Below, one piece after another: positions 26,133 through 44,047 of a stretch of 64,000 nt of DNA. A model generated the notes under the pieces. It did no database searches and was not told the DNA's origin. It saw only the letters and a program-made list of their open reading frames with translations. The position numbers were made by a program, and so were the translations under genes. This stretch comes from a virus. The stretch is taken from positions 90,760-154,759 of IMG/VR virus record IMGVR_UViG_3300025519_000001; one strand, written 5' to 3'. How positions within the stretch are numbered: the stretch's first letter is position 1; every line of letters starts with the position of its first letter.

Positions 26133-26140
26133 TAACTCAC

Positions 26141-26644: not shown

Positions 26645-27125
26645 CAGAGTCACCTTTTTCATTGATTACAGCATTTACAAATGCTTCACCTAATGCATTG
26701 CCAATAAAATTACTATTTTTGCCAACTTGCTCAATCATATCTTGAACCCTCTTCAATTCTTCTGGATCAAATTGATTTAGAATTTCTTCAAGCAAATCTA
26801 AGTCGATAAGCTTCTCGCAAATAACCACCATTTTTTCAATATCAAGTGGAATAGAGTTGCCCAAACTTGTAAAATGCTTTAATAGGAGCATATAATAAAT
26901 AAAAGTTGCATCTTTAAATACTTCCCATGATACATTTTTATTTTTTAATTGTTCTAGAATATCCGAATAATCCAAAAGTAATCTCTGAATTGAAGTTTTT
27001 TTAAACTTCAATTGAATATCAATATAGTCACCATTTTTCAGTGTAACGCGCTTCATCTGATTAAATTCTGCTGCGTGTTGCTTATTAATTGAAGCAAGCG
27101 ACAAATGCTTTTGTTTTGTTGCCAT
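26619..27125 (-). CDS. Probable tail assembly chaperone
   Basis: Helical ~168 aa between tail tube and TMP, LLKHFTSL motif. Confidence 0.5.
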   Translation of the reverse strand: MATKQKHLSLASINKQHAAEFNQMKRVTLKNGDYIDIQLKFKKTSIQRLLLDYSDILEQLKNKNVSWEVFKDATFIYYMLLLKHFTSLGNSIPLDIEKMVVICEKLIDLDLLEEILNQFDPEELKRVQDMIEQVGKNSNFIGNALGEAFVNAVINEKGDSDADIQESE

Positions 27126-27151
27126 ATTTTTTTTCACTCTCCCTGAAAGAT

Positions 27152-27766
27152 TTAAAACCAACAAAAAGGATGATTTACTTTTCTCTCGAAAATCACAAGT
27201 AATTGTTTATTAGACCAGCAACCCGGACATTGATGAATAACTTTTGTGTATATTTTTGAAAAATTATTTATACGATTTGGAAAACTCTCTTCTAAAAATT
27301 TAAACTTATGTTCCGAATCTTCATTTTCGCAACTTGAATCATTGTAAGGAACAAGAATAATAAGGAATTCGCGCGTATATTCCATCATCTCATTAATCCA
27401 AAAATAAGGATTTTTAAAAAGCTGCAAACAATTGCTTGTTATAATGACATCATAATTAATCCTATAATCTTTTAAAAAACCATTATAAAAAAATAATTCT
27501 GGATGTACTTGACGACATTCAAAAATTGCCTGATCTGAAATATCTAAACCACAAACAAAGGAAGTAGGAAAGTGTCGCATTAAAACTTCAACACCCTGTC
27601 CTAATGCACACCCCCAATCTAATATTTTTTTTCCATTTAAATCTACAAAATTAGGTAAATTCTGAACGATCAACTCCATAAAGTTTTTTGTTTGCTCTTT
27701 ACCATTAAATTCAATCCAGTTTGTTCTAAAACGATTATCCCAATATTCTTTACTATTTATCTCCAC
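27152..27766 (-). CDS. Class I SAM-dependent methyltransferase
   Basis: ILDWGCALGQG motif I, GLDIS, YDVII. Confidence 0.85.
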   Translation of the reverse strand: MEINSKEYWDNRFRTNWIEFNGKEQTKNFMELIVQNLPNFVDLNGKKILDWGCALGQGVEVLMRHFPTSFVCGLDISDQAIFECRQVHPELFFYNGFLKDYRINYDVIITSNCLQLFKNPYFWINEMMEYTREFLIILVPYNDSSCENEDSEHKFKFLEESFPNRINNFSKIYTKVIHQCPGCWSNKQLLVIFERKVNHPFCWF

Positions 27767-27769
27767 ATA

Positions 27770-28741
27770 TCATACCTCCAAAATTGCTTGACGATACATC
27801 GCAAGCACTTGTTTTGCTCTTAGGGTATAATTATGATGCTTGTACACAAATTCTTGCGCCTGTTTAGCTTTTTCTTTTCGCTGTTCATCTGTCATTGAGA
27901 GAATTTCATTTACCATATCAAATAGTTCGTCGGTATTTTTGGGTAAGTATATATAATCATGAAAAAGAAACTCCTGAGCTTTTGTATAGCAAGAAACTAA
28001 TAAAGCTCCTCCACTTCCAAGAACTTCATACATTCTCATTGATGTTTGTGTATAAGAGCAATCATCCAGATTAAACCCCAAAGCAATTTTAGAGGATGAA
28101 TAAACTAAAGGTAGTTTTTCATATGATAAAAGCCCATGATAGCAATCACAGTATTCTCTTATATCGATTTTTCTACTTCCATCTATCCACCAATTATTCC
28201 CGTAAACCCTTACATTGTAGTTATTCTGCAAAAGCGGAATTAGGAAATCAGAAACTTGCTTAGATCTTCTATCATAGTTATTTGCAACCAAAACTATATC
28301 ATTGTCTATATTTACATCTATCTTTTTATGAAAGTTTGGATTGCATCCAAACAACAGCAATTCTGCATTCTTTCCTTTTTTCCAATAGTTAGGTAAGCAT
28401 TCTGCTGTTGTTGTAAAAATATAATCTGTATAATCAGACCAATAATCACCAATCCAATGATCGTTTGGTGTATCTTCAATGGCCCAATAAAAATGAGGAA
28501 TTCCCATCTTATTAGTGTATTCAAAAATTAATTCCGAAAATTCGGCAAAACATTCACTAAAAACCAAATCTGGACGAAATATTTCAATCACTTCTTTAAA
28601 TATTTTAAATTGGAGTTCTTTATTTTTATCCCAAAGTTGATATTCTTTATCCATAATAAAAACATCATGACCCAAGTTACGAAAACCAGAAGAAAGACCA
28701 AACTTAATAAGGGGGGCATTATTTGTAAATAATATTCTCAT
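27770..28741 (-). CDS. CgeB-like GT-B glycosyltransferase
   Basis: YWAIEDTP, DYIFTT, YSSSKIALG, SMRMYEVLGSGG, HNYTLRA. Confidence 0.85.
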   Translation of the reverse strand: MRILFTNNAPLIKFGLSSGFRNLGHDVFIMDKEYQLWDKNKELQFKIFKEVIEIFRPDLVFSECFAEFSELIFEYTNKMGIPHFYWAIEDTPNDHWIGDYWSDYTDYIFTTTAECLPNYWKKGKNAELLLFGCNPNFHKKIDVNIDNDIVLVANNYDRRSKQVSDFLIPLLQNNYNVRVYGNNWWIDGSRKIDIREYCDCYHGLLSYEKLPLVYSSSKIALGFNLDDCSYTQTSMRMYEVLGSGGALLVSCYTKAQEFLFHDYIYLPKNTDELFDMVNEILSMTDEQRKEKAKQAQEFVYKHHNYTLRAKQVLAMYRQAILEV

Positions 28742-29733
28742 AAATGTTTACCACTTCTTTTTGAATACTCATAAATTGCATTTTCAATTTTTGAATATCT
28801 TTGTTCCCAAGTATTATTTTTAGCAAATTCAATTGCTTGTCTTTTAATTTCCGGTTTTTTGGATAATTCAATAGCACGATCTACATTCAATAGAAATTCT
28901 TCATCTGTTTGACTTGGTAATACTACATTAGGATACAATCGAACTTCAGGCCAATCAGTAGAAACTGTTACTTTTCCGCAAGACATATGTTCATAAAGCT
29001 TTATAGGGTCTGCCGCTTGAGTTATTTCTAATTTCGTATTAAAAGGCAGTAAACAAACGTCCAAAGTTTGATAATAATTAATCAAATCCGAATGAGACTT
29101 TACTCCTAAATTTTTTACATTAGATGGACAAACATTTCCAAATTCTCTTCCAATAAAAACTGTTGTATATTTGTCAGCTACTTTTTTAATTAATGAAGTT
29201 TTTACCCAAGAGCCAATTGCGCCCACAAATCCAACAATCGGCCCATTAAATCCAATTAAATCATTTGGTTTTTTAAAGGGCGCATTGATAAAAGACGAAT
29301 CACAGGCATTACGAACTAAATAAACATTATTATGCATTTTCTTTCTCAAATCAAATAAATACTGTGAACTTGTTAATACAATATCTGCTTTTTTACAAGC
29401 TTCGAACTCAAAAGGATGCCATTCTGGAAAAGAGTCAACGCTATCGTATATATTGATTTTTGCTTTAATAATTGGATAATAAACATGAGATTTTGCCCAA
29501 GTCGCATAAGCTACATCAATTTTCAATTTATTTTTTTGAATTTGTTCCACAACATCATGAAAGTTATAATGAACAAATAAATTCTTCTCTACTTCTTCTG
29601 GTTTCCTATTCAATTGTGTTTGATTGCAATAAATCACTCTCCATCCGTTTTTAGCAAATTGAGAAAGAATATGTTGAGGACGTTGTTTTAAAAAATTCCA
29701 ATCAATTGTAGGCATATAAAGAATTGTTCTCAT
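28738..29733 (-). CDS. TuaH-like GT-B glycosyltransferase
   Basis: DWNFLKQRPQH, IYDSVD, LVRNACD, GFVGAI..W, DVCLLPF, DPIKLYE. Confidence 0.85.
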   Translation of the reverse strand: MRTILYMPTIDWNFLKQRPQHILSQFAKNGWRVIYCNQTQLNRKPEEVEKNLFVHYNFHDVVEQIQKNKLKIDVAYATWAKSHVYYPIIKAKINIYDSVDSFPEWHPFEFEACKKADIVLTSSQYLFDLRKKMHNNVYLVRNACDSSFINAPFKKPNDLIGFNGPIVGFVGAIGSWVKTSLIKKVADKYTTVFIGREFGNVCPSNVKNLGVKSHSDLINYYQTLDVCLLPFNTKLEITQAADPIKLYEHMSCGKVTVSTDWPEVRLYPNVVLPSQTDEEFLLNVDRAIELSKKPEIKRQAIEFAKNNTWEQRYSKIENAIYEYSKRSGKHL

Positions 29734-30499
29734 TGTTTTCTCCCTTTAAAAATTTTTTTAACATATCCTTCGACATGATATGATGACAATACGCACTTAT
29801 ATCGCACCACAATTCAAAACCCTTATTTTTACAATCCAAACTCCAGCTTATATCTTCACCTTGAAAATGATAAGAATAAGAGGTTTTTTCACAAACAGAC
29901 TTAGACATTAAACAAATTGCACCTGTAGCATCTACTTTTAGTAATTTGCTTTGTTTTAAGGTTGGCGCATTTTTTACATACCAATTACGAACATGAGTAA
30001 ATCCGCCTTGTTCATTTAAATTGAGAATGTTAGGATACTGCCAATATGTATCAGGATAAGAGATATAACCGTTATAAATTAATGCTGAACATATATCTTT
30101 TTGATGAGATAGCAATTTGTTTAATGTATCTGGTTGCACTAAAATGTCCGAGTCAACAGAAAATAAATAATCTGATTGCACAGAAGATAAGATTTTATTT
30201 CTTAAATTAGAAAGATGTTTATATGTATAATTTTGTCTTACTTTTGGAGTACGCAAATCTTCAAACATATATTTAGAATCAAATTTTTCAATAATAAAAG
30301 ATTTATATTCGTGGCCATATTTTCTTTTAAATTCTTCAAGAATTTTTTGTGATTTATCATTTGAATTATTTAATAAAAAATAAAAAGAAATAAGGTTTTT
30401 AGGATAATTTAAATTACGCAGATGTTCAAGATAAAAAGGAAGAATCCAATCTCTTGAATTAATTGGAGCGCTTATTTGAATTGTTGGCTGTATATTCAT
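29702..30499 (-). CDS. GT-A (GT2-like) glycosyltransferase
   Basis: DYLFSVDSDIL (DxD), VDATGAICL, GEDISW. Confidence 0.85.
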   Translation of the reverse strand: MNIQPTIQISAPINSRDWILPFYLEHLRNLNYPKNLISFYFLLNNSNDKSQKILEEFKRKYGHEYKSFIIEKFDSKYMFEDLRTPKVRQNYTYKHLSNLRNKILSSVQSDYLFSVDSDILVQPDTLNKLLSHQKDICSALIYNGYISYPDTYWQYPNILNLNEQGGFTHVRNWYVKNAPTLKQSKLLKVDATGAICLMSKSVCEKTSYSYHFQGEDISWSLDCKNKGFELWCDISAYCHHIMSKDMLKKFLKGENNENNSLYAYN

Positions 30500-30531: not shown

Positions 30532-30612
30532 TCTCTCAAAAAATAAACAAGGGAAGGTGATGAGAGAGTCACCTTATCATATAGAACCGCGTATTCTATA
30601 CTATCCCTTGTT
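30532..30612 (-). ncRNA. Three-way-junction + pseudoknot RNA element, copy 1 (5' of glycosyltransferase cassette)
   Basis: P1 AACAAGGGA/TCCCTTGTT, P2 TATAGAA/TTCTATA, junction TGATAA, P3 GGTGA/TCACC; loop CTCTCTCA complementary to TGAGAGA just 3' of P1. Confidence 0.6.
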
Positions 30613-30630
30613 AAATTAAAATTTTATTTT

Positions 30631-31395
30631 TTAATTGTCATAAATCGTTAAATCATACATAGCCTGACGACCATCTGGTAATTGAGTTGATAGAATATCA
30701 AATACCATTTCAATAGTCGTAGGATCTCCTGAATTAGCTCCACTTAAGGTAAATGTCGGTTGCGCCTTAGCTTTAAAGATATTGAATTGTCCATCCACAA
30801 CCTTATTAGCAAAACGGTCTGTAAAGAACGCTTCAACGACAAGTTTTGTGTAGGGAGGGAATTTACCTGCATCAACCTGAATTGTATAAGTGTCGTTTGT
30901 GGTTTGCCACTGATAGAAAACTTGAACTTCTTCTCCAGCAGAAACAGTCAAAGGATCAAGTTCAATTTCGTTGCCATTTACCCCTAAAACTCCAACAGGG
31001 GTTGTAATAACACCATTCACAAATTTAAATACTGCCGGTAAAACATCTGATGGTGTTTTACCAAGAGTTATAATCAAATCACCAGCGACATTTTTAACCT
31101 GACCATTTTCTACTTCATAAATATCCGTTTGACCTTTAATAATTTCGGAGCCAGTCATAACAGCAATTGAAGATAGCGTAAAAATTTGACTAGAAATAGT
31201 GAGCGTAGCTGTTTTAGCCCCATTAAATGTCAAAACACGGGGACCGCCGCGTCCGCCAGTGGCATACACAGTATCGGCACCATTTTGAAGTGACACACTG
31301 TTTACAAAATCGAGATAAATAAGAGGAGTGCTATTCTCAAGATTAATAACTTGAGTATACATCACTTCTCTCAAACCATATTGACCTAATTCCAT
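30631..31395 (-). CDS. Major tail tube protein
   Basis: YATGGRGG, FPPY.K, IFKAK....FTLS....GDP....M.FDIL; position after tail terminator. Confidence 0.75.
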   Translation of the reverse strand: MELGQYGLREVMYTQVINLENSTPLIYLDFVNSVSLQNGADTVYATGGRGGPRVLTFNGAKTATLTISSQIFTLSSIAVMTGSEIIKGQTDIYEVENGQVKNVAGDLIITLGKTPSDVLPAVFKFVNGVITTPVGVLGVNGNEIELDPLTVSAGEEVQVFYQWQTTNDTYTIQVDAGKFPPYTKLVVEAFFTDRFANKVVDGQFNIFKAKAQPTFTLSGANSGDPTTIEMVFDILSTQLPDGRQAMYDLTIYDN

Positions 31396-31444
31396 TTATA
31401 AATCCTCCTTATTTTGAGAAAAATAAAAACCTCTCAAAGAGAGG

Positions 31445-32176
31445 TTAAAAATTAGTTCTAACAATCCAATCTTCCAATTTAGTTCCTTCTTTTAACGAAA
31501 ATGTATTAGCCCACAAAGCCAACATTCGCTTATGATTTTCCATAATATTTACTCTTTCAAAATGCTCATAAACTTGATAAACAGTAAGCTTTCCCACATT
31601 AAAGATATTAATACCATTTCCTTCTGCGTTACACAAAACAGACAGCATATCTTTAAGTTCAAATTCTTTTTTCTTCATCATAGCCTTTTTTCGATTCATG
31701 TGTTGTTCATATTTTTTCTTTACTCTATCATTTTTAAACTGTAATTTTTCTTTTTCTTGGTTTATACCGTTTATTTTTTTTATTACATTTATAATCTGCT
31801 TATAATTTTCTTTTTGAATTAAAACGTGTTTATTTGAAATAAATATTTTTGATATATTATCAAATTTTACTTCTTCTTTTGTAAAAAACGAATAGGCACT
31901 TGCAATATATCCAGCAATCATATCATTTAATGTCAAAACATCATAATCGTCTAATTGCTCAATTTGCTTATATTCTTCATCTGATACCTGATATAATTGT
32001 TTGAAAATATTTTCCTTATCGAACATTGCAAAATTTAAATGCACATGATACATTATTTCGCCAATTTCGCTAATCTCATCAATAGTAGGGGAATAAAACA
32101 AAACTCCATTAAATTCAACTGGCTTACCTAAAAATAAAGTTAGGCGATCAATAACCATAGACAAATCACCTAACAT
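31445..32176 (-). CDS. Conserved tail-module protein of SPbeta-like phages
   Basis: YSPTIDEI..IGE, LTVYQ.YE.F motifs; synteny. Confidence 0.55.
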   Translation of the reverse strand: MLGDLSMVIDRLTLFLGKPVEFNGVLFYSPTIDEISEIGEIMYHVHLNFAMFDKENIFKQLYQVSDEEYKQIEQLDDYDVLTLNDMIAGYIASAYSFFTKEEVKFDNISKIFISNKHVLIQKENYKQIINVIKKINGINQEKEKLQFKNDRVKKKYEQHMNRKKAMMKKKEFELKDMLSVLCNAEGNGINIFNVGKLTVYQVYEHFERVNIMENHKRMLALWANTFSLKEGTKLEDWIVRTNF

Positions 32177-32645
32177 TAAATTCTTTCGGTAAATAGCAAA
32201 TTGTTGAACCTTGAAACATATCGTTTACAACAATGTCATCTAAATAACCAAATTCTAATTGTCCTAAACCTAACAAGCTTCGTTTCCGATTCATCAATTG
32301 ATCTATTTTATTTATTATAAAATCAACTCTAGTTGCATTATAATCTGTTCTAAATAAATCACGATGTGTAAAAACATTTAAACAGAATCTTTCAGATTTA
32401 ATGGTCGAAGATGATGCAGTAATCCTTCCAAACGTCAAAGTAATAAAGGTTTTTTGAGTTTGGGCGGCATCAGGAATAAACCTAAAAGGAAAAATATTAT
32501 TATAAATTAATAATGAAGTGTCAAAATCATCTTGATCTAAAAAATTTTGATTATTGTAATAAACTGCCTTGCATAAATCCATGTCACTAATTAATATTTC
32601 TACAACTTTCTCTTTATATTTAGACAATTCTTCCAAAAAGGCCAT
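32166..32645 (-). CDS. Probable tail terminator
   Basis: IFPFRFIPD, R.D.I...ID, GLGQLEF; synteny. Confidence 0.55.
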   Translation of the reverse strand: MAFLEELSKYKEKVVEILISDMDLCKAVYYNNQNFLDQDDFDTSLLIYNNIFPFRFIPDAAQTQKTFITLTFGRITASSSTIKSERFCLNVFTHRDLFRTDYNATRVDFIINKIDQLMNRKRSLLGLGQLEFGYLDDIVVNDMFQGSTICYLPKEFNVR

Positions 32646-32661
32646 TCCTAATCACCTCCCA

Positions 32662-33918
32662 TCAAAATAAGCCCTTTATCTGAATTCGTTTGAATGAAAT
32701 GACAGTTTCATCATCTATTAATCTTGCTTGCAATTGAACATACCCATACTGTTGATTATTATTTGCTTTTATGGTACAGCTTGTACCCGTTTGTAGCGTA
32801 ATTAAAGCTAATGCTGTAGAACTTGATTTATCATCAGCCAATAATGACCATTCTACTGATTTACTATTATCAACAACACCATTGTTTCTTACTTCTGCTG
32901 TGTATGTTTGAGTTTGATTGGATTTACACACATCAGAACCGGAAATAGTAATAACATAATTATCTTCAGCAACAGCATTGACTTGGATATTGATTTTACT
33001 AAATACCTTATTATCATCTGTCAAAGAAGCAGTAATCACCACATTACCTTCGGACAAACAAACAATAAGTCCGTTTTCATCAACAGTAGCAATAGATTCA
33101 TCAGAACTTTCAAATTCAATAGGTTTATCTACAACAATTCCATTATCAATAACTTGAACATTTAATTGAGTAATATCGCCAACAGACAGTTGAATAAAAT
33201 CCCCATTTAAAATTTTAATAATCTTCTCGTGAACGCTATTATAGTAATCGGCAATCCTAAGTTCCACATTATCTCTAGCAGGATCAATCTGATGCTCTTC
33301 AAGTGTTAAGGTTATGATGCCGTCAACAAGACGGTCAATATTCAATGTTCTCCAAGCACGACCATCAAAAATGAATCGCTGCTCTTTCTTAATCAATTCA
33401 GTAAATTGATTATTCTGAATCGTAATTTGCCGTCTTTCGCTAGGCATAATTAGAACTTGCCCATCATTTAACCCGAGAACAGATGAATTTGTGCTTAGTT
33501 GACAGAATTGTGCTTCTCGAATATCTCCATTCTCATCAAGCCACTTAATAGATGAAAAGCAACGCATTGCAGTTCCACGGCTATAAATATCACCTAAATT
33601 TTTATCTGCGATATAAGTTAGATAGTATTGATCCATATCAGGCCAATAAAATAAATATCCACTATCTAATTCTTGCGATGGGTGAGATATAAATTGCTTT
33701 TGAAACTTTGAATCACTATCATCAAGTATCCACACTTCTAGCGGAGTAGACGAAAGTGGAGTAGAAGGGAGATATGCATCTACCCGATAATATGATGGAC
33801 TAGCGAAAAAATCAGATTCAATAGACCTTTTCGTTAATGCAATACGAGAATCCCTTGGAGTTGATTTTTGAACGGATAATATGGCATTATAAGCATCATA
33901 ATATCCCATAATTCTCAA
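32662..33918 (-). CDS. Head-closure-like protein with Ig-like (Big_2) domains
   Basis: FESSDESIATVDENGLI...EGNVVITA. Confidence 0.65.
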   Translation of the reverse strand: MRIMGYYDAYNAILSVQKSTPRDSRIALTKRSIESDFFASPSYYRVDAYLPSTPLSSTPLEVWILDDSDSKFQKQFISHPSQELDSGYLFYWPDMDQYYLTYIADKNLGDIYSRGTAMRCFSSIKWLDENGDIREAQFCQLSTNSSVLGLNDGQVLIMPSERRQITIQNNQFTELIKKEQRFIFDGRAWRTLNIDRLVDGIITLTLEEHQIDPARDNVELRIADYYNSVHEKIIKILNGDFIQLSVGDITQLNVQVIDNGIVVDKPIEFESSDESIATVDENGLIVCLSEGNVVITASLTDDNKVFSKINIQVNAVAEDNYVITISGSDVCKSNQTQTYTAEVRNNGVVDNSKSVEWSLLADDKSSSTALALITLQTGTSCTIKANNNQQYGYVQLQARLIDDETVISFKRIQIKGLF

Positions 33919-34370
33919 CTCCCTTCGGGATTATAGTTTTTATAACTGTACTGAATCATCAGTCCATTGGCACGTTCCATAATGCTATCGCGTTCATCCA
34001 TTTTTGCTTTTAAATTTTGCGATTCAGCATAACGTTTAAAATCTGAATTTGACAAAGCCAATCTCATTTGCTCAATATTATTTACTTCTCTGTCCATCCA
34101 ATGATATTGCATAAGAGTTGCAAGAATCTCTTGCTCTATACCATTTAAATCAACATTGAAAATTTGTGCATCATCATCTCGATCTTCTAAGTCTTTTTGA
34201 CAATACACAAAAAATGGAATTGCGCTAATCAAAAAACCCTTTAAAAAAGATTCATAAGAATCAACAGATTTTTGATATAAAGCATCAAGATTGTAATCTT
34301 GAACTTTTGTTGAGAAACGAGAATAAATTGTCTGATAGGGTGTCATAAATAGCCCCCTATAATCATACAC
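33915..34370 (-). CDS. Head-tail adaptor
   Basis: TPY..IY.RF, FN.DL...E.EILA..M...W, DFK.Y; synteny. Confidence 0.6.
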   Translation of the reverse strand: MYDYRGLFMTPYQTIYSRFSTKVQDYNLDALYQKSVDSYESFLKGFLISAIPFFVYCQKDLEDRDDDAQIFNVDLNGIEQEILATLMQYHWMDREVNNIEQMRLALSNSDFKRYAESQNLKAKMDERDSIMERANGLMIQYSYKNYNPEGS

Positions 34371-35025
34371 TTAATTCCATTGCTAATTGATAAATATCTG
34401 TGCCAACATGATCACTTAATACAGCTAATTTGTTACGATCAAGATATTTAGGATTACCCTTTGCAATCTCAGTGATAAATTGATGTACAATTGCTTGCAG
34501 TTGAACCTTAGTAACTTTTTTAAGTAATTCTTCCAAATAAATTGCGCTTGTATTTACAATTTGCTCAATATCGCTTCTGTTTAACAAATTTTTATAATCA
34601 TTTTCAAGATATAATGCCTTAACTGCCTTTTCGTTCAAAATAATAAAGGCTCCATCCCTTGCGAGATCTGGATGGTTGTTAACTATATAACGCAAATCTT
34701 CAAAAGAAACTGTAATACTATTGCCAAAATCAGGGATTCTCACAATATGATGAAGAGCACGAAGATTTAGTCCGCCGACTGTTAAACTTACAAGTCTAAT
34801 TCGAGCAGTAGGAGAGATGTCTATTTCTTCTTCAATATCTGAATAGATACTCTTTTTATAATTATCTTTTTGTTCTTCTTGATTATTATTTGATTTATTA
34901 GCTTCTATAAGCGATTGAACAAGTTGTTTTAATTGTTCAATTTCATTTTTCATACTTTCCTTTTCAGGATCAACTTGAACAGTATCTTGTACTTGATTTT
35001 CAATTTTTGTTTTTTGTGTAGCCAT
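34363..35025 (-). CDS. Conserved protein downstream of capsid gene
   Basis: 220-aa ORF with SD; synteny. Confidence 0.55.
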   Translation of the reverse strand: MATQKTKIENQVQDTVQVDPEKESMKNEIEQLKQLVQSLIEANKSNNNQEEQKDNYKKSIYSDIEEEIDISPTARIRLVSLTVGGLNLRALHHIVRIPDFGNSITVSFEDLRYIVNNHPDLARDGAFIILNEKAVKALYLENDYKNLLNRSDIEQIVNTSAIYLEELLKKVTKVQLQAIVHQFITEIAKGNPKYLDRNKLAVLSDHVGTDIYQLAMELSV

Positions 35026-35051
35026 CGTTTGATTCTCCCTTTTGATAAAAT

Positions 35052-35076
35052 AAAGAGGAGGATTGCTCCTCCTCTA
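35052..35076 (-). terminator. Terminator after major capsid gene
   Basis: AGAGGAGGA-(4 nt)-TCCTCCTCT followed by T-rich run on minus strand. Confidence 0.65.
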
Positions 35077-35097
35077 ACTTTTATTTTTTACAAATTA

Positions 35098-36213
35098 TTA
35101 AGAAATGTTTTGCCATAGAGCATAACGGCCAGAAGTGACGATCTTCATATCCCACTTCTTATAAATAGTGTAATCCATGCTATTATCAGCGTTTTGATTG
35201 ATGTCACTTTGAGTGATAACTGTTTCTCCTTCAAAGCCAATTTTAACAAGTTGCTTAGAAGGAGCAGACACAATTACAACCGTTTGATTATCAATTGCAA
35301 ACTCATCGGTATTAGGAATGAGACGTTGTTCGAGAGCGAACAGATCCGTACCTTGGAAGTTAGTTAGATAACCAGTACGGTTGTACTCTTCTCCAAGTCC
35401 AAAACGGAAATACTGATCTGCAGGAACAATTTTCGATAACGCATATCGAGTGCCAAATGCAGAAGCCTTAGAACCAAGATTGAACGCAGTTACACGGTCA
35501 ACAAGATTGATAAATTTACCTTGGTCGAATGCGCCAGTTTCCTTATATTTGGCTCCAAGAGAAGAATAACTACCGAAAATAGCGTCTGCAATTTCAACAG
35601 TAATTTCAGTTTCAATACTGCCAACGATACGCATAGCGAAGTCGCCCCAGTTAACCTTACCAGCAAGAATACGGTACATGTCTTCACCAGCAGTAATCCG
35701 ATGGCCTACAGGATTTAGAACTACGTCCGTGCCAAGAATACGTTGACGAACACCAGTCTTAATACCGTCAGCAGCCTTAGAAACAACGAATAAATCATTG
35801 GAAGGAACATTGAATACAAGATTATCTCCCCAACCAACATTTTTTACTTCAGAGAATTGATAAAAATCTTCAAGTACAGTTTCAGGAATAATAATATCAA
35901 TCATTTGGCTAATAACTGCAAAAGTAGCCATTTTTACAGTTGGGTGCATAGCTGCATAGGTTTCGCCAATAGGAGAATCCACACCTAGTCCAGCCATCTT
36001 ATTTGCAAATGCACGAAGGCTCTTATTGAAAATTGCTTCCTTTTCTTGATACTTGCCTTGAGCATATTGAGAATATTTACTTTTGATTTCAGGATTTTGA
36101 ACCGTATCATGACGATAGTGATAGAAAAGTTCTACTCCAGCTTGAACAATTTCCTTAAAGTCATTAGGCATAGAATAGTATGCTTTGTTAAAACGTTGTA
36201 CTTTGTTTAGCAT
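35098..36213 (-). CDS. Major capsid protein
   Basis: 371 aa after protease and decoration genes; F.EVKNV.WGD...F.V, VKIGFEG motifs; followed by terminator. Confidence 0.8.
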   Translation of the reverse strand: MLNKVQRFNKAYYSMPNDFKEIVQAGVELFYHYRHDTVQNPEIKSKYSQYAQGKYQEKEAIFNKSLRAFANKMAGLGVDSPIGETYAAMHPTVKMATFAVISQMIDIIIPETVLEDFYQFSEVKNVGWGDNLVFNVPSNDLFVVSKAADGIKTGVRQRILGTDVVLNPVGHRITAGEDMYRILAGKVNWGDFAMRIVGSIETEITVEIADAIFGSYSSLGAKYKETGAFDQGKFINLVDRVTAFNLGSKASAFGTRYALSKIVPADQYFRFGLGEEYNRTGYLTNFQGTDLFALEQRLIPNTDEFAIDNQTVVIVSAPSKQLVKIGFEGETVITQSDINQNADNSMDYTIYKKWDMKIVTSGRYALWQNIS

Positions 36214-36249
36214 TTTGTATATTCCTCCAATATGTATAATTTACTTTAA

Positions 36250-36762
36250 TTAAAGTGAGCGAACACAAAGTAGACGATAAGCTGTTTTACGATTTTGACC
36301 GACAGTAATAGTTGTCTGTGCAATAACTTCAAAAGCAATTAACGTATTGCCTGAAAGATCGTCAGCAGGAGCAAAAGTCAATTGACCATTCGCAGGAACC
36401 GCATATTTACCAACAGTTGGAGTGCTAGAAAATCCTTCGGTAGTAAGAGTAATATCGTCGCCAACTTTAAGATGGATTGCACGAGTGGGACGATTAGCCG
36501 GATTAACGAAATTAGATACATCAGTTAGTGGTACACGAAGACCATTAACCTCGATAATTTCAGGACCATGTACAAGAAGAACCTCTTGTTTAGTAACGTC
36601 AGCTACAGGAGTAGCTGCATAAACATCATTCTGACCACTTACTAGACCAGCGAGAGCAACAAGGCTACCATTAGGCATATCAAAAGGTGCCTGAACATCC
36701 TTGTTGTAAGATTCAACATTTTTAGCAGCATATTTGCCAACATTAAGTACCGTATAAGCCAT
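36250..36762 (-). CDS. Head decoration/cement protein
   Basis: NGSLVAL.GL, L.VGD.I.LT; sits between scaffold and capsid. Confidence 0.65.
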   Translation of the reverse strand: MAYTVLNVGKYAAKNVESYNKDVQAPFDMPNGSLVALAGLVSGQNDVYAATPVADVTKQEVLLVHGPEIIEVNGLRVPLTDVSNFVNPANRPTRAIHLKVGDDITLTTEGFSSTPTVGKYAVPANGQLTFAPADDLSGNTLIAFEVIAQTTITVGQNRKTAYRLLCVRSL

Positions 36763-36781
36763 TTTTTACATTTCTCCTTTA

Positions 36782-38755
36782 TTATTCTTTTTCAAATTTA
36801 TTTTTTAGTCTTGAGAAAACATCAGATTCATCTTGTGACTTATCCTCTGTTTTCTCAATAAATGCAAAGCGTTTTTCAGATTTATCATTACCAATAAATT
36901 CTTTAATCTTTGAGAAAGCAGCAAGTTTAAATTCTTTTTCAAATGACTCATAAGAATCACATTCTTTACCTTTGTTGCGCCATTCATCAATTTCTTCAAC
37001 AGAGAAAAACTTAGAATTTTCTTCAATTAACGAATCAACTTTTTCATTTTTCTCTTGTTCAAGTTTAAACGCTTTAAACTCAGAAAGTTCTGCTAATTGT
37101 GCTTTAAGTTGTTCAATTTCAGCATTTGCAGATTCTAGTTTAGATATAGCTACAAATGCAGTATCTTGATGTTCTTGTAATTTTGCTTCGCATTCTTGTT
37201 TTAGAGAAGCAATTTGTGCTTCATATTCTTGTTTTGTAGATTCGTGCTGTTGTTTGATAGCGGAAAATTTTTCTTTTGCTTCACTGTCAATTTTACGAGC
37301 ATAATCTTGAACAGAGTCAATGATTACATCATTGTCGTAGTCAGGATCATCCTCAACGCCACCTTCCCAATCAACAGGCGTATATTTAATACGAGTTGCG
37401 CTAGAATAATCAATCTTAATATTGTCACCTTCGACAGTGTAAGAAAGTTTCATATCCATGCAATCGTTAGCAAAGTCAACAACATATACGAATGATTCAT
37501 CATAATCTTTAAGGAAAAAACGAGGACGCTCTACTAATTGACCAGTCCACCAATCTTCGGTTTTATATGTTACCTCACTTAAAACTCTGTTGAACTCATC
37601 AAACATTTGACCAGCAGTTAGTTTGAATTTTGTTAATAGGTCTTTTTTAGACAAACTGTCTCCCTCCTTTGTGAAATTTGATGTGTCCAAGCCTAGTTTT
37701 CGATAAATTTTTTTCAATTTATCAATTGGAGAACCAGATGTGATTCCCTCCTGATGTAATCTCTGTAGAGCGGCTTGAACTCCATTGATGTTATATACAA
37801 GTTTGCCATTTTTGATTTGGCAAACTGGGTATTTTAAATGATTAGAGGGAGCGTCCTCCCATCCACCTTCAACTATGAGATAACATTTAGTGACGAGGGT
37901 TTTATAATTGGATGCTTTAAGGATATCGTTTCGAAGCTTGGTCTTATCAACATCTCCCCATGCATCGTTTGAAGCAGCCTCTTTGGACAGATCAATTTCG
38001 ATTTTCTCTCCAGTACCCCAGTCTTCTTTTTTGAGAAAATTTTCTTTATTAGACACCTTGCTCTCACCTCCTTCAAGTGATTTAGAAGCCTTATTTGAAA
38101 AATAAACATTAAATTCTTCGAACATAGTTTTAAGATGCTTATTGAAATTTTTCATATTAAATTTTTCTATAGTTGAAAATGGAATTCCGGGTTCCACATC
38201 ATTTCCTAAAACACACAATCCGTCGAAGACAGCAGAAGTAAAGTGAAATAATTTATCATTTTCATCAATATATCCTTCGCAATTTGTTAGTTCCATTGAA
38301 TGCTTCTTAGACCAGCCGTCACGTTCGAATATATCAATAACGTCTGACCATTTTTTCCACAAGTAAACCACACAAGTCAAATATTCTCGTGTAACTCCGT
38401 CTGGACACAGTTTAAACTCAAAATTCCATTCAGGATCGGCGGGTACTAGCCCATATGCGAATCCCAAGTACTTAAATTTATAATCTGTTTCCCCACTATC
38501 AGGATCAACAATTTTAATCAAATCTTCCTCATGAGCACGAAAATCAATTTCATTAAATTGATTTTTGCCAATAAATCCGGTAAGAGGGGTATAAGGAAGG
38601 GTTTCAGCCATCTTTGATAAAACATCTTTTGAAAAATAAGAAGCGTTATAATTCTCCCCAACATTTGCGATATAAACCTTCATTTTTATAAATTTATCTA
38701 ATGAATCTTCTATTTTTTCAAACCTTACAGGTATAATGTTTCGATTGTTATCCAA
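36782..38755 (-). CDS. Prohead protease-scaffold fusion with internal starts
   Basis: G.NYN.S.F, AYG.VP, YLWK, HSMEL, GLCVLG..VEP protease region; acidic coiled-coil C-term. Confidence 0.8.
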   Translation of the reverse strand: MDNNRNIIPVRFEKIEDSLDKFIKMKVYIANVGENYNASYFSKDVLSKMAETLPYTPLTGFIGKNQFNEIDFRAHEEDLIKIVDPDSGETDYKFKYLGFAYGLVPADPEWNFEFKLCPDGVTREYLTCVVYLWKKWSDVIDIFERDGWSKKHSMELTNCEGYIDENDKLFHFTSAVFDGLCVLGNDVEPGIPFSTIEKFNMKNFNKHLKTMFEEFNVYFSNKASKSLEGGESKVSNKENFLKKEDWGTGEKIEIDLSKEAASNDAWGDVDKTKLRNDILKASNYKTLVTKCYLIVEGGWEDAPSNHLKYPVCQIKNGKLVYNINGVQAALQRLHQEGITSGSPIDKLKKIYRKLGLDTSNFTKEGDSLSKKDLLTKFKLTAGQMFDEFNRVLSEVTYKTEDWWTGQLVERPRFFLKDYDESFVYVVDFANDCMDMKLSYTVEGDNIKIDYSSATRIKYTPVDWEGGVEDDPDYDNDVIIDSVQDYARKIDSEAKEKFSAIKQQHESTKQEYEAQIASLKQECEAKLQEHQDTAFVAISKLESANAEIEQLKAQLAELSEFKAFKLEQEKNEKVDSLIEENSKFFSVEEIDEWRNKGKECDSYESFEKEFKLAAFSKIKEFIGNDKSEKRFAFIEKTEDKSQDESDVFSRLKNKFEKE

Positions 38756-38836
38756 TATCTCACCTCCTTTAAAGTGTTTTAAAATTAAAACGAAAATGAC
38801 TTTGACCAGTATCTTTGGGTAAATATTTATTTGATT

Positions 38837-40420
38837 TTAGCGAATATTTGATTCATTATCTCGTGTTGCTTCTGAATTTTCATTCTCTAAATCGTCAGAT
38901 TGTGGTCTACCATTCTTCTTGTTTGAAACAGTATGAGCAGAGACAAGTGGTTGCATTTTCTCACGCATCCCAAGCGCTGATTCAAGATTAAGCATATTGA
39001 TAAACTCTTGTTGAGTTCTTCCTTGTGCAACCGCGACATAACTAATTGGAGCACCAAATTGAATAAGTTTCATTGCTCTTTCAATACGATCTTCGCGATC
39101 AAAAATTGTTCCTTCAAAATGTATTCTCCATTGGTATTTTCCACTAATCTCTTTGAATTTGTAATTATAAAACCTAGCGAATTGACGATACAAATGGGTC
39201 ACAAATGTTTCATCTGTTCGTAAAGAAGCTTTCATCGTTGAGGCATTCATTCTGTCTCCGCTAAATAGAAGGGAAGTTGTACCAGAAGTATCCCAAAACT
39301 CTTTGTTACCAAGACCAACAATACTATCTTTTGTTTCTGCCTGATTAAGATTGATTGCTTCAATTTCCATCGGAGAAGTGACAATACGAATTCCTTGCTG
39401 AATTACATTTTGAATTGCAGCCATATATTTGCCTGCGGTTTCAGGATGTATGGAAAAATTATCCTTCTTGTTAGTTTTATTTTCACTTTTTTCCAAAGGA
39501 ATTTTTGCAACAAGGAGTTTATATACATCTAAAGCTGTTTTGCTTTTAAGTAATTCTTTAAACGTAGCAATTTCATTAGCATCTAAAAATAAACCTGCAT
39601 ACACAGGAGTTTGTCCAACACGATTCTGATCATATTTAAAAACAACAGCGCGTGATGGGTCTAAAGTTTGCCAATAAAACCATCTACGCTCTTTAAATTT
39701 ATTTTTATTATTTTTATAGTCTTCCCCATTAATAAAATTATCAAAATAAACTTTGAACTCAGGAGGGAAATCATCAAGTGAAATGCCGGGACGTAAGAAA
39801 TAGGTGAGATCGAAAGCATACTCATAACCCATTTCGCCTTTTTTCCATATTTTGCAGTAATCACTCGGAAGTTCCTTGAAATAATATCCATTTTCACCTT
39901 CGCAGAGATACATAAACTTTGCATCTTCAAGTAACATACCTTGTACAATATCAGGGAGATGCATCTTCGGATCTAAGTCATACATAAATTGTGTAACTCT
40001 TTTCAATGACTTTAAAAATGCTGGTTTTGTCATTTCATCAGGATCAACTCCGATTGGCTCTAAAAGCCAATCAAAGGTTAACATCTCGGACATATAAATA
40101 ATGAGTCGTTTCATCTGCATCGTTATATCGAAAAGATATTGACTTAGTTCTCTAAGTTCTTTTTCATGCGCTCTAGGATTGGCGATAAGTTCTTTTATGC
40201 GATCTCTTGAAAACTTCTGAGGATGCATGTTTATATCCTTAAGGATCTCATTCGTCCAAATAGGATTGAATAACCATGCAGCATTGCCACTCATCATGTT
40301 TTGCATTGCAGAAAAAAATTTCTTTGCATAATCTTCGCCAACAAAATTTTCATTCTGAACATTTTTATTTTCGTTTTCTTTTTTTGCGTTTGCATTCTTT
40401 CGTGGTCTTCCTCTAGGCAA
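38837..40420 (-). CDS. Portal protein
   Basis: 527 aa after TerL; ELP.DYCKI, AFDL.YF, C-term PL.S.HT.S...GRP. Confidence 0.8.
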   Translation of the reverse strand: MPRGRPRKNANAKKENENKNVQNENFVGEDYAKKFFSAMQNMMSGNAAWLFNPIWTNEILKDINMHPQKFSRDRIKELIANPRAHEKELRELSQYLFDITMQMKRLIIYMSEMLTFDWLLEPIGVDPDEMTKPAFLKSLKRVTQFMYDLDPKMHLPDIVQGMLLEDAKFMYLCEGENGYYFKELPSDYCKIWKKGEMGYEYAFDLTYFLRPGISLDDFPPEFKVYFDNFINGEDYKNNKNKFKERRWFYWQTLDPSRAVVFKYDQNRVGQTPVYAGLFLDANEIATFKELLKSKTALDVYKLLVAKIPLEKSENKTNKKDNFSIHPETAGKYMAAIQNVIQQGIRIVTSPMEIEAINLNQAETKDSIVGLGNKEFWDTSGTTSLLFSGDRMNASTMKASLRTDETFVTHLYRQFARFYNYKFKEISGKYQWRIHFEGTIFDREDRIERAMKLIQFGAPISYVAVAQGRTQQEFINMLNLESALGMREKMQPLVSAHTVSNKKNGRPQSDDLENENSEATRDNESNIR

Positions 40421-40460
40421 TATATTACCTCCTTTCTTTTGTTATTAAAATATAATTTAT

Positions 40461-42296
40461 TTAACAAATGTATAAATAATCTAAAACGTTTACTTCTTCT
40501 TCTGCTTTTTGTAAATTTTCTTGTTCAAGAATTCTTGCTACGTAATTAGCATAACCTAAACTAGAATATCTGTCTTTTCTAGATCTACCTCTCTCTGTAA
40601 GTTTAATAAACCCATTTCTAACTTCTGAATCAAGATTAATTAATTCATTAACTAAGGCCGTTGTTTGTACATAAGGTCTTAGCAACATAGCATGTTCATA
40701 TGGAGTTTTATTCATTAGTTCATGTTTTTCAATTAAATATTCTTTCCCTTCAGCATCATTTACTAATAGTCTAATCAATCTTTTTTCAAAAGCCGTCTTA
40801 AGCCATACAGCAATTTCATGGTTTACTTCTGCCTTGACAACTTTCATAGAATATACAACTGGAAGAGCATTAGGGTCTGTCACACGATCTTTCATATCAT
40901 CATTATTAATAGCTGTCCAAGGCAGATATTCCACATCTCTTTCCTTGTCATATAAGATCCGAGAACAATAATCATAAATTGACATACCACTACCGTTGGT
41001 ATCCATCACAACATAATCTGCTTCAAAATCTGTATAAAGTTGTTTTAAACGAATGGCTTGATCTTCTGAATGAATTCCATGCATACTCTCTATATAAGGT
41101 ACTTGTCTTATATAATTAGTTCCATCTGGCAATAATCTCATACACGTAAAGATTGTGTTGTCGTTATCATTACCACTCATTAACGCAACGTCCATTGATA
41201 CAAGCCTTATTTCGCCTGCTTGCTTTTCAAGACCTATTATATTTTTCTTTCCTCTTAATTTTGGTTTATCTTTATTTTCTAAGAATGACACGCTGTCCAT
41301 AGGATAAAATGGTTTTACTATAGTTCGACATTTTTCAATATCATTTAATTTAAAAAATGCCTTTTCGGATTCTCCATAAGGTAGAGTATCCATTTCCATC
41401 TGCCAACCAATTGCATCTAAATCCCCTTCTGTTCGCATTTGCTCCACGCGACTTTCAGACAGCAATCCATGATGTATAGCAAGTTGATAGGGAAAGGCAC
41501 AAGTGAAATAATTTCTACCTTGCAACATTGAAGTTAAAAATGACTGAAATTTAGTATAACTCCAATGAGAAGAAAACCACGCTGAACTCAAATACACTTC
41601 TTGCGGCTCTTCAAATTTTGCAAATTCCTTTTGTCTATCTTTATATTGCGGCAAATTTAAAAATTTAGGTTTTCTAATGTAATTCAAGAATGGCCTTAAA
41701 ACACGAGTAATAACCTCTTCTTTTACAAGACGAAACTCGTCCACGACTAGAATTCCAGCACGTAAACCCCTTGAATTATCATTACTAGCTGCCGCATGAA
41801 TTGTACTTCCATTATGAAGTATACATACAGTTTCATCTGCGCCCGTTTTTACTTGTTTTATTTCTCTTGCTATATTTGGATATTTTAAACGTAACTCTTT
41901 ATCAATCTTTACTGTTATTACTGATTTGGCTTGGCCTTTTGTCCCAGAAGCGATTACTATTGGTAGGCCAGGTTTTAAACTAGCCATTGCCAAACAGTAA
42001 AGTGCAACAATAAAACTTTTGCCCAATCCACGGCTTGCCCACCAAAGAAAGAAAGAATTCTTACTCATCATATATAAAATTATTTTTTGGAACGTATGTA
42101 ATCTAACTCCAAAATAATCTTCAATATAACGATGAATATTGCTTCGATAAAAAGAAGCCCACAACTTAATTCCATTTCTTAAGCGCTCGTCCTTGGATAA
42201 ATTCTTTACCATATTATTTACTTGTTTCTTTTTCTCATAGATATTTAATTCATTACTTTTGTTTCTTTTAACTTGAAAATTTGAATAACCAGCCAT
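40461..42296 (-). CDS. terL: Terminase large subunit
   Basis: Walker A SRGLGKS, RGLRA.ILVVDEFR, nuclease SMDVA, VMDTNG.G, RKDRYSS. Confidence 0.93.
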   Translation of the reverse strand: MAGYSNFQVKRNKSNELNIYEKKKQVNNMVKNLSKDERLRNGIKLWASFYRSNIHRYIEDYFGVRLHTFQKIILYMMSKNSFFLWWASRGLGKSFIVALYCLAMASLKPGLPIVIASGTKGQAKSVITVKIDKELRLKYPNIAREIKQVKTGADETVCILHNGSTIHAAASNDNSRGLRAGILVVDEFRLVKEEVITRVLRPFLNYIRKPKFLNLPQYKDRQKEFAKFEEPQEVYLSSAWFSSHWSYTKFQSFLTSMLQGRNYFTCAFPYQLAIHHGLLSESRVEQMRTEGDLDAIGWQMEMDTLPYGESEKAFFKLNDIEKCRTIVKPFYPMDSVSFLENKDKPKLRGKKNIIGLEKQAGEIRLVSMDVALMSGNDNDNTIFTCMRLLPDGTNYIRQVPYIESMHGIHSEDQAIRLKQLYTDFEADYVVMDTNGSGMSIYDYCSRILYDKERDVEYLPWTAINNDDMKDRVTDPNALPVVYSMKVVKAEVNHEIAVWLKTAFEKRLIRLLVNDAEGKEYLIEKHELMNKTPYEHAMLLRPYVQTTALVNELINLDSEVRNGFIKLTERGRSRKDRYSSLGYANYVARILEQENLQKAEEEVNVLDYLYIC

Positions 42297-42302
42297 ACTA
42301 AA

Positions 42303-43181
42303 TCAATCTTCCTTTGTGACTGTTTGCATCTTTTCATCATATTCCTCCATTGTCTCGTTTGTTAGTCCGAGGAATCGACGCATATGATGCAAAAACCATT
42401 TATCAATGTACTTTCCAATACCATCTACGTCTTTAAATTCATCTCTTGGTTCAGGTATTGGCTCGGTTTCCTCAACCATTTTTATAAATTCACCAAAAGA
42501 AGAAATACCATTTGCTTCTGCACCCGTCTCTTGTACAGGCTTAATATTTGCATCATTCATAAGTCTACTTAAGGTATCCATAAGTTCTTTATATTTTTTA
42601 TGGTCAGAATTAGCGATAGCATCATTTGCTTGAATTTGAGTTATCGCAATATTTCTGTATAGGTTTCTTTGAATTGGAGTACCATGTTCATATGTAGATA
42701 TTAATTCCTGATAAAAATTTTCTAATTTACGTATCTTTGATGGTTCAAAGCCTTCCCATCTAGATAGCACCTCTTGAGAAAATTCTTGAACAGAATCAAT
42801 TTCATCCAAAAAACTAATTATTGATTTATTATTTTCAAATATACTATCTTTATAAGTTAATCCTTTATATTGAGGAAGTGATGATACTTGAGTAACATAT
42901 TTTGACCAAATGCCATCCGTACTTTCCCAAAGCGTTGGTATAAACGGACGATCAAGTAGAGAAAGCATCATATAAACACGATTTATAAATGTAGCGTCTT
43001 TTTCTCCTATGTAATTTGTAATACATTCTTTACACACAGGAAACTTATCACAATTTGAGAATAAAGGATGCGTATTATTGTAAAAATTTGCATGTGTCGA
43101 TGCTTTCTCTTTCCCACAATTTAAGCATTCTATTTTTTTAATAGTCTCATTGCTAATAATTTTACTTTTTTTACCTGCCAT
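42303..43181 (-). CDS. Probable terminase small subunit with Zn-finger
   Basis: CLNC...CKEC, LDRPF...W, FG..I...E..EPIPE; directly upstream of TerL. Confidence 0.6.
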   Translation of the reverse strand: MAGKKSKIISNETIKKIECLNCGKEKASTHANFYNNTHPLFSNCDKFPVCKECITNYIGEKDATFINRVYMMLSLLDRPFIPTLWESTDGIWSKYVTQVSSLPQYKGLTYKDSIFENNKSIISFLDEIDSVQEFSQEVLSRWEGFEPSKIRKLENFYQELISTYEHGTPIQRNLYRNIAITQIQANDAIANSDHKKYKELMDTLSRLMNDANIKPVQETGAEANGISSFGEFIKMVEETEPIPEPRDEFKDVDGIGKYIDKWFLHHMRRFLGLTNETMEEYDEKMQTVTKED

Positions 43182-43201
43182 TTAATTTTTCTCCACCTCA
43201 T

Positions 43202-43281
43202 TTTCTCCCTAAATATAGATGGGGGATGGCCGGGAGAAAGCCAACTTACGAAATCTGCTTAAGCAGACTTTCCCCCATCTA
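43202..43281 (-). ncRNA. Three-way-junction + pseudoknot RNA element, copy 2 (5' of terminase genes)
   Basis: P1 TAGATGGGGGA/TCCCCCATCTA, P2 AAGTCTGCT/AGCAGATTT, junction CGTAAG, P3 TGGC/GCCA; loop TTTCTCCC complementary to GGGAGAAA just 3' of P1. Confidence 0.6.
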
Positions 43282-43393
43282 AAAACAAAAACAAACAAAA
43301 AAGAGTACAAAGAGGATTTGTACTCAATTTTCTATGTTCTTATTTATTTTATCCCTATTGGGAATAGGGTAGGGAGGGTATGAAATTATTATT

Positions 43394-43972: not shown

Positions 43973-44047
43973 ATCTCTTACACCCCCAGTATTTTATGCA
44001 TATTGGCATTGGCTGACTGGAGGCCAGCATACCGAGAGTAGCTGCTC

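Follow-up and report, generated by a model that had tools for sequence, protein, structure and literature searches.

Class-1 exoribonuclease-resistant RNAs (xrRNAs) of flaviviruses are characterised by a three-way junction, two pseudoknots, one joining the 5′ end to the junction and the other acting as a latch, and a ring of 15-16 nt around the 5′ end (PMC8374639). For Bacillota, PMC3997798 lists the STAB-SD of Bacillus thuringiensis cryIIIA (Agaisse & Lereclus 1996) and a polypurine 5′ stabiliser found in an early RNA of a B. subtilis phage (Hue et al. 1995). The late genes of phage SPbeta are a single operon made by the RNA polymerase YonO, with a start upstream of yonK and a late promoter that is still undefined (PMC5467207). 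Here we describe two elements, E1 and E2, on the minus strand of a 64,000-nt stretch of DNA (the window), which is the right-hand 64 kb of the 154,759-bp virus record IMGVR_UViG_3300025519_000001 (G+C 33.6%) and comes from a large SPbeta-like siphophage. A first-pass annotation had presented them as recurrent three-way junctions with a pseudoknot, located in late 5′ untranslated regions and sharing the topology of flavivirus xrRNAs. On comparative sequence evidence, E2 is a member of a conserved, apparently undescribed and position-specific structured RNA that precedes the yonG-like gene, a small-terminase-type (terS-like) gene.

A conserved structured RNA upstream of the yonG-like gene

Minimum free energy folding of the 80-nt E2 region yields a helix, P1, that closes two arms, P2 and P3 (-32.2 kcal/mol, z = -3.65), and the 81-nt E1 region folds in the same manner (-24.2 kcal/mol, z = -3.07). 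Both minus-strand three-way junctions of the first-pass annotation are thereby confirmed, as is the UAAG within the P2-P3 junction (J2/3) of each. Relatives of the terS-like gene were drawn from viral contigs, metagenomes, one Paenibacillus genome and Paenibacillales genomes, the last of which contributed only four new loci. The same architecture stands directly upstream of terS homologues of 39-66% identity (loci L001/L007, L003, L008, L010-L015, L087-L098, L100-L103, L138 and L154-L157). Its shared layout opens with P1 and a P2 hairpin, passes through an A-rich junction (UAAG, UAAAG or UUUAAAC) to a P3 hairpin with (Y)CUCCC in its loop, and closes with the return strand of P1; a U-rich tail and a GGGAG-like box usually come next, in that order. 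Every divergent member folds into P1, P2 and P3 by itself, every P3 loop retains CUCCC or CUCUC, and the box follows in nearly all lineages. E2 has all the parts that define this family, namely the three helices, the A-rich J2/3, the CUCCC loop and the position directly upstream of a yonG-like gene. The gene on the other side of the element varies by lineage, being ClpP-like here, yonH in SPbeta, and small open reading frames (ORFs) or tRNAs elsewhere; in L156, two Rfam-called tRNA genes (61.8 and 44.6 bits; 1057-1209) lie directly upstream of the terS-leader element.

A covariance model built from one subgroup of the relatives only (R1) detects E2 at 18.5 bits. A second model (R2), whose seed includes E2, L100, L102 and L007 and excludes E1, L011 and L154-L156, gives E2, as one of its seed members, 49.7 bits and recovers the non-seed members L011 (24.9 bits), L155 (23.3 bits), L156 (20.3 bits) and L154 (16.2 bits). 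In five relatives' records (65-194 kb), model matches occur exactly once per genome and always before terS. In an alignment of 12 sequences (A6), which was fitted to the covariance model and hence favours structure, 97% of cells are paired compared with 78% in shuffles, and 13 of the 17 pairs show changes on both sides. None of 500 shuffles matched the observed values, controls with slid partners collapsed, and covariation was present in all three helices. On the coding strand, G-U pairs exceed A-C mismatches by about 15 to 4, which points to a structure of the sense-strand RNA rather than of the DNA. The MAFFT alignments of divergent members (A2 and A4) are not structure-aware and were left unused; model-made alignments A5 and A7 contained reverse-strand copies and were used after those rows had been removed.

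SPbeta and its close kin carry a reduced form in which P1 surrounds the P3 hairpin alone (loop UACUCCCCUU), without P2, and in SPbeta this is the only hairpin between yonH and yonG. In L129, an SPbeta relative, even the P1/P3 form is lost and the element is reduced to a simple hairpin. The first-pass annotation had suggested a covariance model with searches of phage genomes and Rfam, and this approach was productive in phages, where the relatives' model finds E2 and homologues stand before terS, and returned no family from Rfam. No family of Rfam 15 reaches E = 1 on E1, E2 or 11 relatives' loci, barring noise and true tRNAs, and a scan of the whole window at gathering thresholds places no family on E1 or E2. 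Comparison of both element regions by DNA similarity with 50,697 phage records gave no match, and the literature yielded nothing relevant on yonG/yonH leader RNAs or bacterial xrRNAs.

The same scan located two twister-sister ribozymes (RF02681, gathering score 34) among the early genes of the window, at 63145-63215 (+; 49.4 bits) and 63873-63943 (+; 62.2 bits). The first begins about 10 nt before the end of ORF 62674-63156 and reaches into the intergenic space ahead of the following early gene; the second starts at the stop codon of ORF 63272-63874. The early operon of the phage seems to use RNA processing as well. A known ribozyme was rejected as an identity for E1 and E2, given the absence of an Rfam match, and a tRNA-like origin was rejected because ARAGORN finds no tRNA within the window.

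Complementarity between the P3 loop and downstream purine tracts

The pyrimidine-rich P3 loop had been reported to match 7-8 bp of a purine tract 6-7 nt past P1, just before the ribosome-binding site. These pairings are borne out by UUUCUCCC and GGGAGAAA in E2 (8 bp, duplex -12.9 kcal/mol) and by UCUCUCA and UGAGAGA in E1 (7 bp, duplex -10.0 kcal/mol). The earlier description had missed a second loop-complementary tract in each element, which overlaps the true Shine-Dalgarno (SD) sequence of the next gene; the first E2 tract is SD-like too, yet lies merely 3 nt ahead of an out-of-frame AUG. Loop and boxes change in parallel between the two elements, from CUCUCUCA with UGAGAGA and UGAGAGG in E1 to UUUCUCCC with GGGAGAAA and GGAGAAA in E2. 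The loop pairs with the true SD in E2 (7 bp), in E1 (six Watson-Crick pairs and one G-U), in L155 and in L156. A separate GGGAG-type box upstream of the true SD is present in E2, L100, L007, L102, L008, L010, L014, L015 and L154, and in L155, L156 and SPbeta the box and the SD are one and the same.

Both elements score 24 with a structural descriptor and are the only high scorers in the 155-kb genome with a loop-tract match of at least 7 bp. In 40 dinucleotide shuffles of the window the mean top score was 17.6, and one shuffle reached at least 24; as the descriptor was hand-written after the elements had been seen, the independent evidence is that of the homologues. When the downstream region alone was shuffled, the loop-tract match had p = 0.024 for E2 and p = 0.146 for E1. 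Among the members, complementarity of the core CUCCC:GGGAG is near-universal, with 4-8 bp in nearly all, and this is conservation, not covariation. In each of the ten lineages with an identifiable GGAG box, the bases flanking the cores, 5′ of CUCC and 3′ of GGAG, fit each other as judged by eye (A:U, U:A, G:C and one U-G). Loops pair with the boxes of their own loci over 5.77 bp and with those of other loci over 5.49 bp, a difference that is not significant (p = 0.14). This comparison covers the loci collected as DNA; about 150 closer TerS homologues were found as proteins. Between P1 and the box lie anywhere from 5 to 46 nt, and in L102 and L154 a whole hairpin is inserted there. The pseudoknot is the weaker part of the observation. 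As first proposed, the elements may plausibly act on the translation or stability of the downstream gene, since the P3 loop mimics an anti-SD sequence and matches SD-like boxes, as well as the true SD in E1 and E2.

Some of the leaders hold further structure around the terS SD. In L008 (1100-1200), L014, L015, L089 and L093-L096, a conserved hairpin, UCUUCU...AGAAGG, masks this SD, and in the same subgroup a short upstream ORF, (A/G)UG-UUC-UUC-UAU, precedes the hairpin. In L094 and L096, one extra U sets the AUG of the upstream ORF in frame with terS, and the GGGA box may act as an SD there.

E1 as a probable second member

E1 shares the P1/P2/P3 architecture and a CUCUCUC loop with the E2 family and differs in position, as it lies after a tail-tube-like gene, where it is the sole hairpin between its flanking genes. 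R2, which was built without E1, gives it 18.9 bits (E about 0.003) with an alignment that covers all parts. The specificity of both models is limited: a plain terminator at 35076-35046 scores 18.1 bits in R2 from P1 and tail alone, and the reverse strand of E1 scores 19.2 bits with R1 and 15.7 bits with R2. A site antisense to the YonO-like gene (50982-51041, +), with P1, a U tail and a UUUAAA junction, reaches 22.4 bits in R1 and 17.7 bits in R2; it may terminate antisense transcripts or match by chance.

At the equivalent spot, the relative G003 (L151) carries a simple hairpin and U run ahead of a homologous glycosyltransferase gene; in G004 (L152) a tRNA-like cloverleaf, judged by eye, lies some 100-180 nt past the tail-tube-like gene; and Paenibacillus prophages have other hairpins. 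Because relatives carry simple hairpins or a tRNA-like gene there, E1 is a lineage-specific, three-armed form of what is an ordinary terminator elsewhere. We consider a diverged copy of the E2 type more likely than a convergent look-alike, and membership of E1 in the family is probable. The recurrence that was first described therefore holds for the shared layout and for the conservation of E2 as coding-strand RNA, and as a family relationship it is only probable.

Both the E1 spot and the terS leader appear to be intergenic sites that accept differing structured RNAs. Downstream of E1, a cassette of three to four glycosyltransferase genes and an integrase-like gene (25110-30499, -) lies between the tail-tube-like and tape-measure genes. 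Its first glycosyltransferase has a homologue at the same place in the distant relative L151, whose terS protein is 42% identical, and the cassette is therefore an old resident of the tail module. A search of viral contigs with the glycosyltransferase protein found no relative.

Genomic setting

The minus-strand block runs from the YonO-type polymerase through PhoH-like, exonuclease, ClpP-like, yonG-like, large terminase, portal, capsid and tail genes to the glycosyltransferase cassette and the tape-measure gene (Table 1). By BLASTP the polymerase is 24% identical to SPbeta YonO over 778 aa (E = 1e-26), with a DxDGD motif common to both, and it is likely to be the polymerase of the late operon that holds E1 and E2. 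Placement of the elements in late 5′ untranslated regions had been an assumption; as the late genes of SPbeta are one YonO operon begun upstream of yonK, E1 and E2 are probably internal to a long transcript made by the YonO-type polymerase, not at primary 5′ ends. The yonG-like gene opens the packaging and morphogenesis block and is followed by the large terminase gene; tblastn matches its protein to SPbeta yonG and to Thrax phage genes annotated as 'terminase small subunit'. Just upstream of E2, after the ClpP-like gene, is the plain terminator T1, and the order of terminator and then element is also found in most relatives.

Table 1 Coordinates of the two elements and of neighbouring features in the window
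Feature	Position	Strand	Basis or detail
E2 three-way junction	43281-43216	-	Minimum free energy fold, covariance models R1/R2, stem covariation
E2 P1	43281-43271 / 43226-43216	-	
E2 P2	43270-43263 / 43258-43251	-	
E2 junction J2/3, CGUAAGU	43250-43244	-	
E2 P3	43243-43239 / 43231-43227	-	Loop UUCUCCC
E2 purine tract 1, GGGAGAAA	43209-43202	-	6 nt past P1, 8 bp to P3 loop
E2 tract 2, GGAGAAA	43194-43188	-	SD region of terS-like gene; 7 bp to same P3 loop
yonG-like small-terminase-type gene	42303-43181	-	292 aa, zinc-ribbon CxxC motifs; phrog_3314, 2.5e-77; start codon 43181-43179
T1, plain terminator hairpin	43303-43325	-	9-bp stem, loop UCCUC, long U run; terminator scan and sequence
YonO-type single-subunit RNA polymerase gene	49026-51614	-	BLASTP to SPbeta YonO
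E1 three-way junction	30612-30546	-	Minimum free energy fold, descriptor score 24, R2 match
E1 P1	30612-30604 / 30554-30546	-	
E1 P2	30601-30593 / 30587-30579	-	
E1 junction J2/3, GAUA(AG)	30578-30575	-	
E1 P3	30574-30569 / 30560-30555	-	Loop CUCUCUCA
E1 U tail, UAUUUUUU	30545-30538	-	Runs into tract 1
E1 purine tract 1, UGAGAGA	30538-30532	-	7 bp to P3 loop
E1 tract 2, UGAGAGG	30520-30514	-	Likely SD of GT2-family glycosyltransferase gene (start 30499)

Other late intergenic hairpins with SD-like or anti-SD-like arms occur on the minus strand at 43975-44047, 35054-35075 and 31428-31446. A CCUCCAGU...ACUGGGGG hairpin masks the SD of the ClpP-like gene, and AGAGGAGGA/UCCUCCUCU and CCUCUC/GAGAGG arms form terminators. 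The T1 loop is another anti-SD-like case, and pairing of SD with anti-SD may be a general theme of the late leaders.

A proposed branched terminator with an anti-SD loop

Across 12 lineages, the G/C-rich P1 is followed within 0-2 nt by a U-rich tail, with a mean of 4.9 U in the 8 nt after P1, and the R2 consensus tail is UUUUU. In the covariance model, P1 with its U tail behaves like an intrinsic terminator, although P1 closes a two-arm multiloop where intrinsic terminators have a simple, uninterrupted hairpin with a short loop. The interpretation that we favour, tentatively and short of calling it probable, is that E2, and probably E1, is a branched terminator or insulator at block boundaries of the late operon, whose anti-SD loop would base-pair with SD-like boxes once the mRNA has been read through and would adjust the loading of ribosomes. 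Its core would be a terminator-type hairpin whose interior grew two arms, a variable P2 and a P3 whose conserved (Y)CUCCC loop would mimic the anti-SD end of 16S rRNA. The boundaries in question would be those before the first packaging gene (E2) and past the tail-tube-like gene (E1). With host RNA polymerase, P1 and the U tail would terminate or attenuate read-through from the upstream DNA-metabolism genes, and the packaging and structural genes would thus be kept off until the YonO-type polymerase reads through. YonO, being without the flap domain that mediates hairpin-dependent termination, would be expected to pass the P1 hairpin. In the read-through mRNA, the folded junction would position the anti-SD loop to pair with an SD-like box a few to about 45 nt downstream and, in E1, E2 and some relatives, perhaps with the true SD too. 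This pairing may set ribosome loading on the leader and hence how well the first downstream gene is translated; a secondary effect could be to shield the mRNA from 5′ decay.

Several observations weigh against this interpretation. The U tail is weak in E2 (UAUUUAGG), L102, L154 and L155, intrinsic terminators seldom have a branched stem, and most members already follow a plain terminator, so that a second would be redundant unless it were doing something else. Outside the invariant core, loop-box complementarity does not exceed that of the cross-locus controls, and the box is missing in one member, L087. In most lineages, the loop fits the separate box and not the GGUGA-type true terS SD, and direct SD masking is therefore not a conserved feature. 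In addition, the E1 score in R2 is no better than that of the generic terminator. Expression data for the SPbeta-type stretch consist of Logan contigs from 20 RNA-seq runs, which span everything and as contigs cannot show ends, and of one raw-read run, which has no reads there.

Alternative explanations

The resemblance to xrRNAs bears directly on the alternative in which the elements act on mRNA decay. The three-way junction is present, as judged by the folds and by covariation in three helices, except in the SPbeta subgroup that lacks P2, and it is the only one of the features defining xrRNAs that clearly is, with the latch a possible second. Pairing of the first-pseudoknot (PK1) type was gauged as the longest complement of the 10-nt 5′ flank to J2/3; its mean is 2.9 bp at own loci and 3.0 bp across loci, with only A/U stretches matching. 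The variable linker of 5-46 nt is a misfit with a tight 15-16-nt ring (PMC8374639). As the loop-tract covariation is also not significant, the SPbeta form has no P2 and no Rfam family matches, the flavivirus analogy of the first-pass annotation is not sustained and the element should not be classed as an xrRNA. By analogy with STAB-SD, the polypurine stabiliser and hbs, it may still act as a looser 5′ barrier of Bacillus type, made of a stable structure and an SD-like box. A barrier of either kind to RNase J1, xrRNA-like or simpler, is unlikely. An endonuclease would cut in the U-rich linker behind the upstream terminator; the junction, either latched through pairing of loop and tract or aided by a ribosome sitting on the SD-like box in the manner of STAB-SD, would then halt 5′-to-3′ decay and stabilise the terminase and structural segment. 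This would make sense of the single-stranded U-rich linker between T1 and P1, of a junction combined with 4-8 bp of loop-downstream complementarity in almost all members, and of a leader SD-like box that in most members has no usable start codon, like STAB-SD and polypurine stabilisers (PMC3997798). There is precedent in hbs, where ribosomes at a strong SD block RNase J1 (PMC5737220), and in flavivirus xrRNAs, which block it in vitro (PMC8374639, PMC5760640), and one long late operon needs segmental control of stability (PMC5467207). The points just made against an xrRNA count here too, as do the hairpins at times inserted in the linker; moreover, the conserved U tail after P1 would be left unexplained, and a single copy per genome is fewer than one would expect of a general device for stabilising a 40-kb operon. 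The stronger claim, that junction and loop-box pseudoknot together form a phage exoribonuclease-resistant RNA, a protein-free or ribosome-assisted RNase J1 barrier that sets the 5′ end and lifetime of the packaging and structural segment in a late transcript made by YonO, we regard as quite improbable.

The elements could also be plain tandem terminators or 3′-end hairpins that do nothing more, with branches as tolerated decoration and a CU loop that fits the boxes only because SD-like sequences abound upstream of genes in this phage. Generic terminators score nearly like E1 in the model, simple hairpins occupy the E1 spot in relatives, L129 has the element cut down to a simple hairpin, many intergenic hairpins of the phage carry SD-like or anti-SD-like arms, and the pseudoknot statistics are weak. 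We nonetheless hold this to be rather unlikely, since terminator hairpins normally drift freely, whereas here the three-arm form, the A-rich junction and the CUCCC loop persist while terS proteins diverge to about 40% identity; all stems show compensatory changes, and the position is fixed and single-copy. An invariant loop on covarying stems, in one copy at a specific position before the first packaging gene, could instead point to a site where an antiterminator, a translational repressor such as the terS product, or a nuclease binds the P3 loop and junction, or to a released small RNA whose C-rich loop acts in trans on SDs. P1 and the U tail would supply such an RNA with a defined 3′ end, many late-gene SDs of the phage are of the GGGAG type, and small RNAs with UCCC motifs and the anti-SD 3′ untranslated region of Staphylococcus icaR are trans-acting precedents (PMC3868564). 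However, there is no evident promoter in the gap of only 10-25 nt between T1 and P1 and no conserved neighbour gene to encode a dedicated partner, which makes both variants improbable. A signal in the DNA itself, whether for packaging (a pac site), for replication (an origin) or for the YonO-type polymerase (a hairpin promoter), would suit a place next to the terminase genes, a typical spot of pac sites and late promoters in many Gram-positive phages. It is very improbable given that G-U pairs are tolerated on the sense strand only, that E1 lies far from the packaging genes and that the YonO start site is upstream of yonK (PMC5467207). The pac site in particular was rejected, as the SPbeta-like pac maps between yonR and yonP, about 8 kb off (bioRxiv 10.1101/2021.11.22.469490).

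Significance

Little is understood of how SPbeta-like phages time the expression of their roughly 40-kb late operon, which is made by the unusual single-subunit polymerase YonO, and a conserved, single-copy RNA fixed directly before the first packaging gene offers a concrete, testable control point of the late programme. SPbeta carries a close variant, which makes B. subtilis 168 a suitable host for testing it. The element is also a candidate for a new RNA family absent from Rfam 15, with a combination of terminator-type helix and anti-SD loop that we have not found described. Were the nuclease barrier to prove real, xrRNA-type biology would extend to phages, and the stronger form of that claim would place a natural xrRNA-type element outside eukaryotic RNA viruses for the first time, with a fold unlike the flavivirus ring.

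Comparison with known systems

With flavivirus class-1 xrRNAs (PMC8374639, PMC5760640) the element shares a three-way junction of about 65-75 nt, a last-arm loop complementary to sequence 3′ of P1, and a viral origin in a host with a 5′-to-3′ exonuclease. It differs in the absence of pairing between 5′ end and junction, in a variable and often long linker in place of the fixed 15-16-nt ring, in having no conserved nucleotides in common, in a P2 that is dispensable in SPbeta, and in its U tail. In common with STAB-SD, the polypurine stabiliser and hbs (PMC3997798, PMC5737220), it has a Bacillota leader SD-like box that does not start the main ORF and at which, in those systems, the 30S subunit can block RNase J1. 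What sets it apart is that the box is potentially paired with an upstream anti-SD loop. The polypurine stabiliser reportedly comes from phage SP82.

Late transcripts of T7 contain RNase III processing hairpins between genes. These likewise are intergenic structures in long transcripts of a phage polymerase that ignores terminators, where they define segment stability, but the element has no continuous helix of at least 20 bp. In the 3′:5′ untranslated-region pairing of S. aureus icaR (PMC3868564), an exposed C-rich motif also pairs with an SD-type sequence of the same mRNA and bears on ribosome access; here, by contrast, the anti-SD sits upstream in the leader, inside a terminator-like junction, and its partner is mostly a decoy box rather than the true SD.

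Finally, intrinsic terminators and insulators between phage blocks have the same G/C-rich closing helix, direct U-rich tail and position at gene ends; the E1 site is interchangeable with plain hairpins in relatives, and the phage polymerase is expected to ignore the element as it would a terminator. In contrast to such terminators, the element encloses a conserved three-way junction, one loop of which is kept in sequence, most elements follow an ordinary terminator, and the architecture is kept far beyond the terminator norm.

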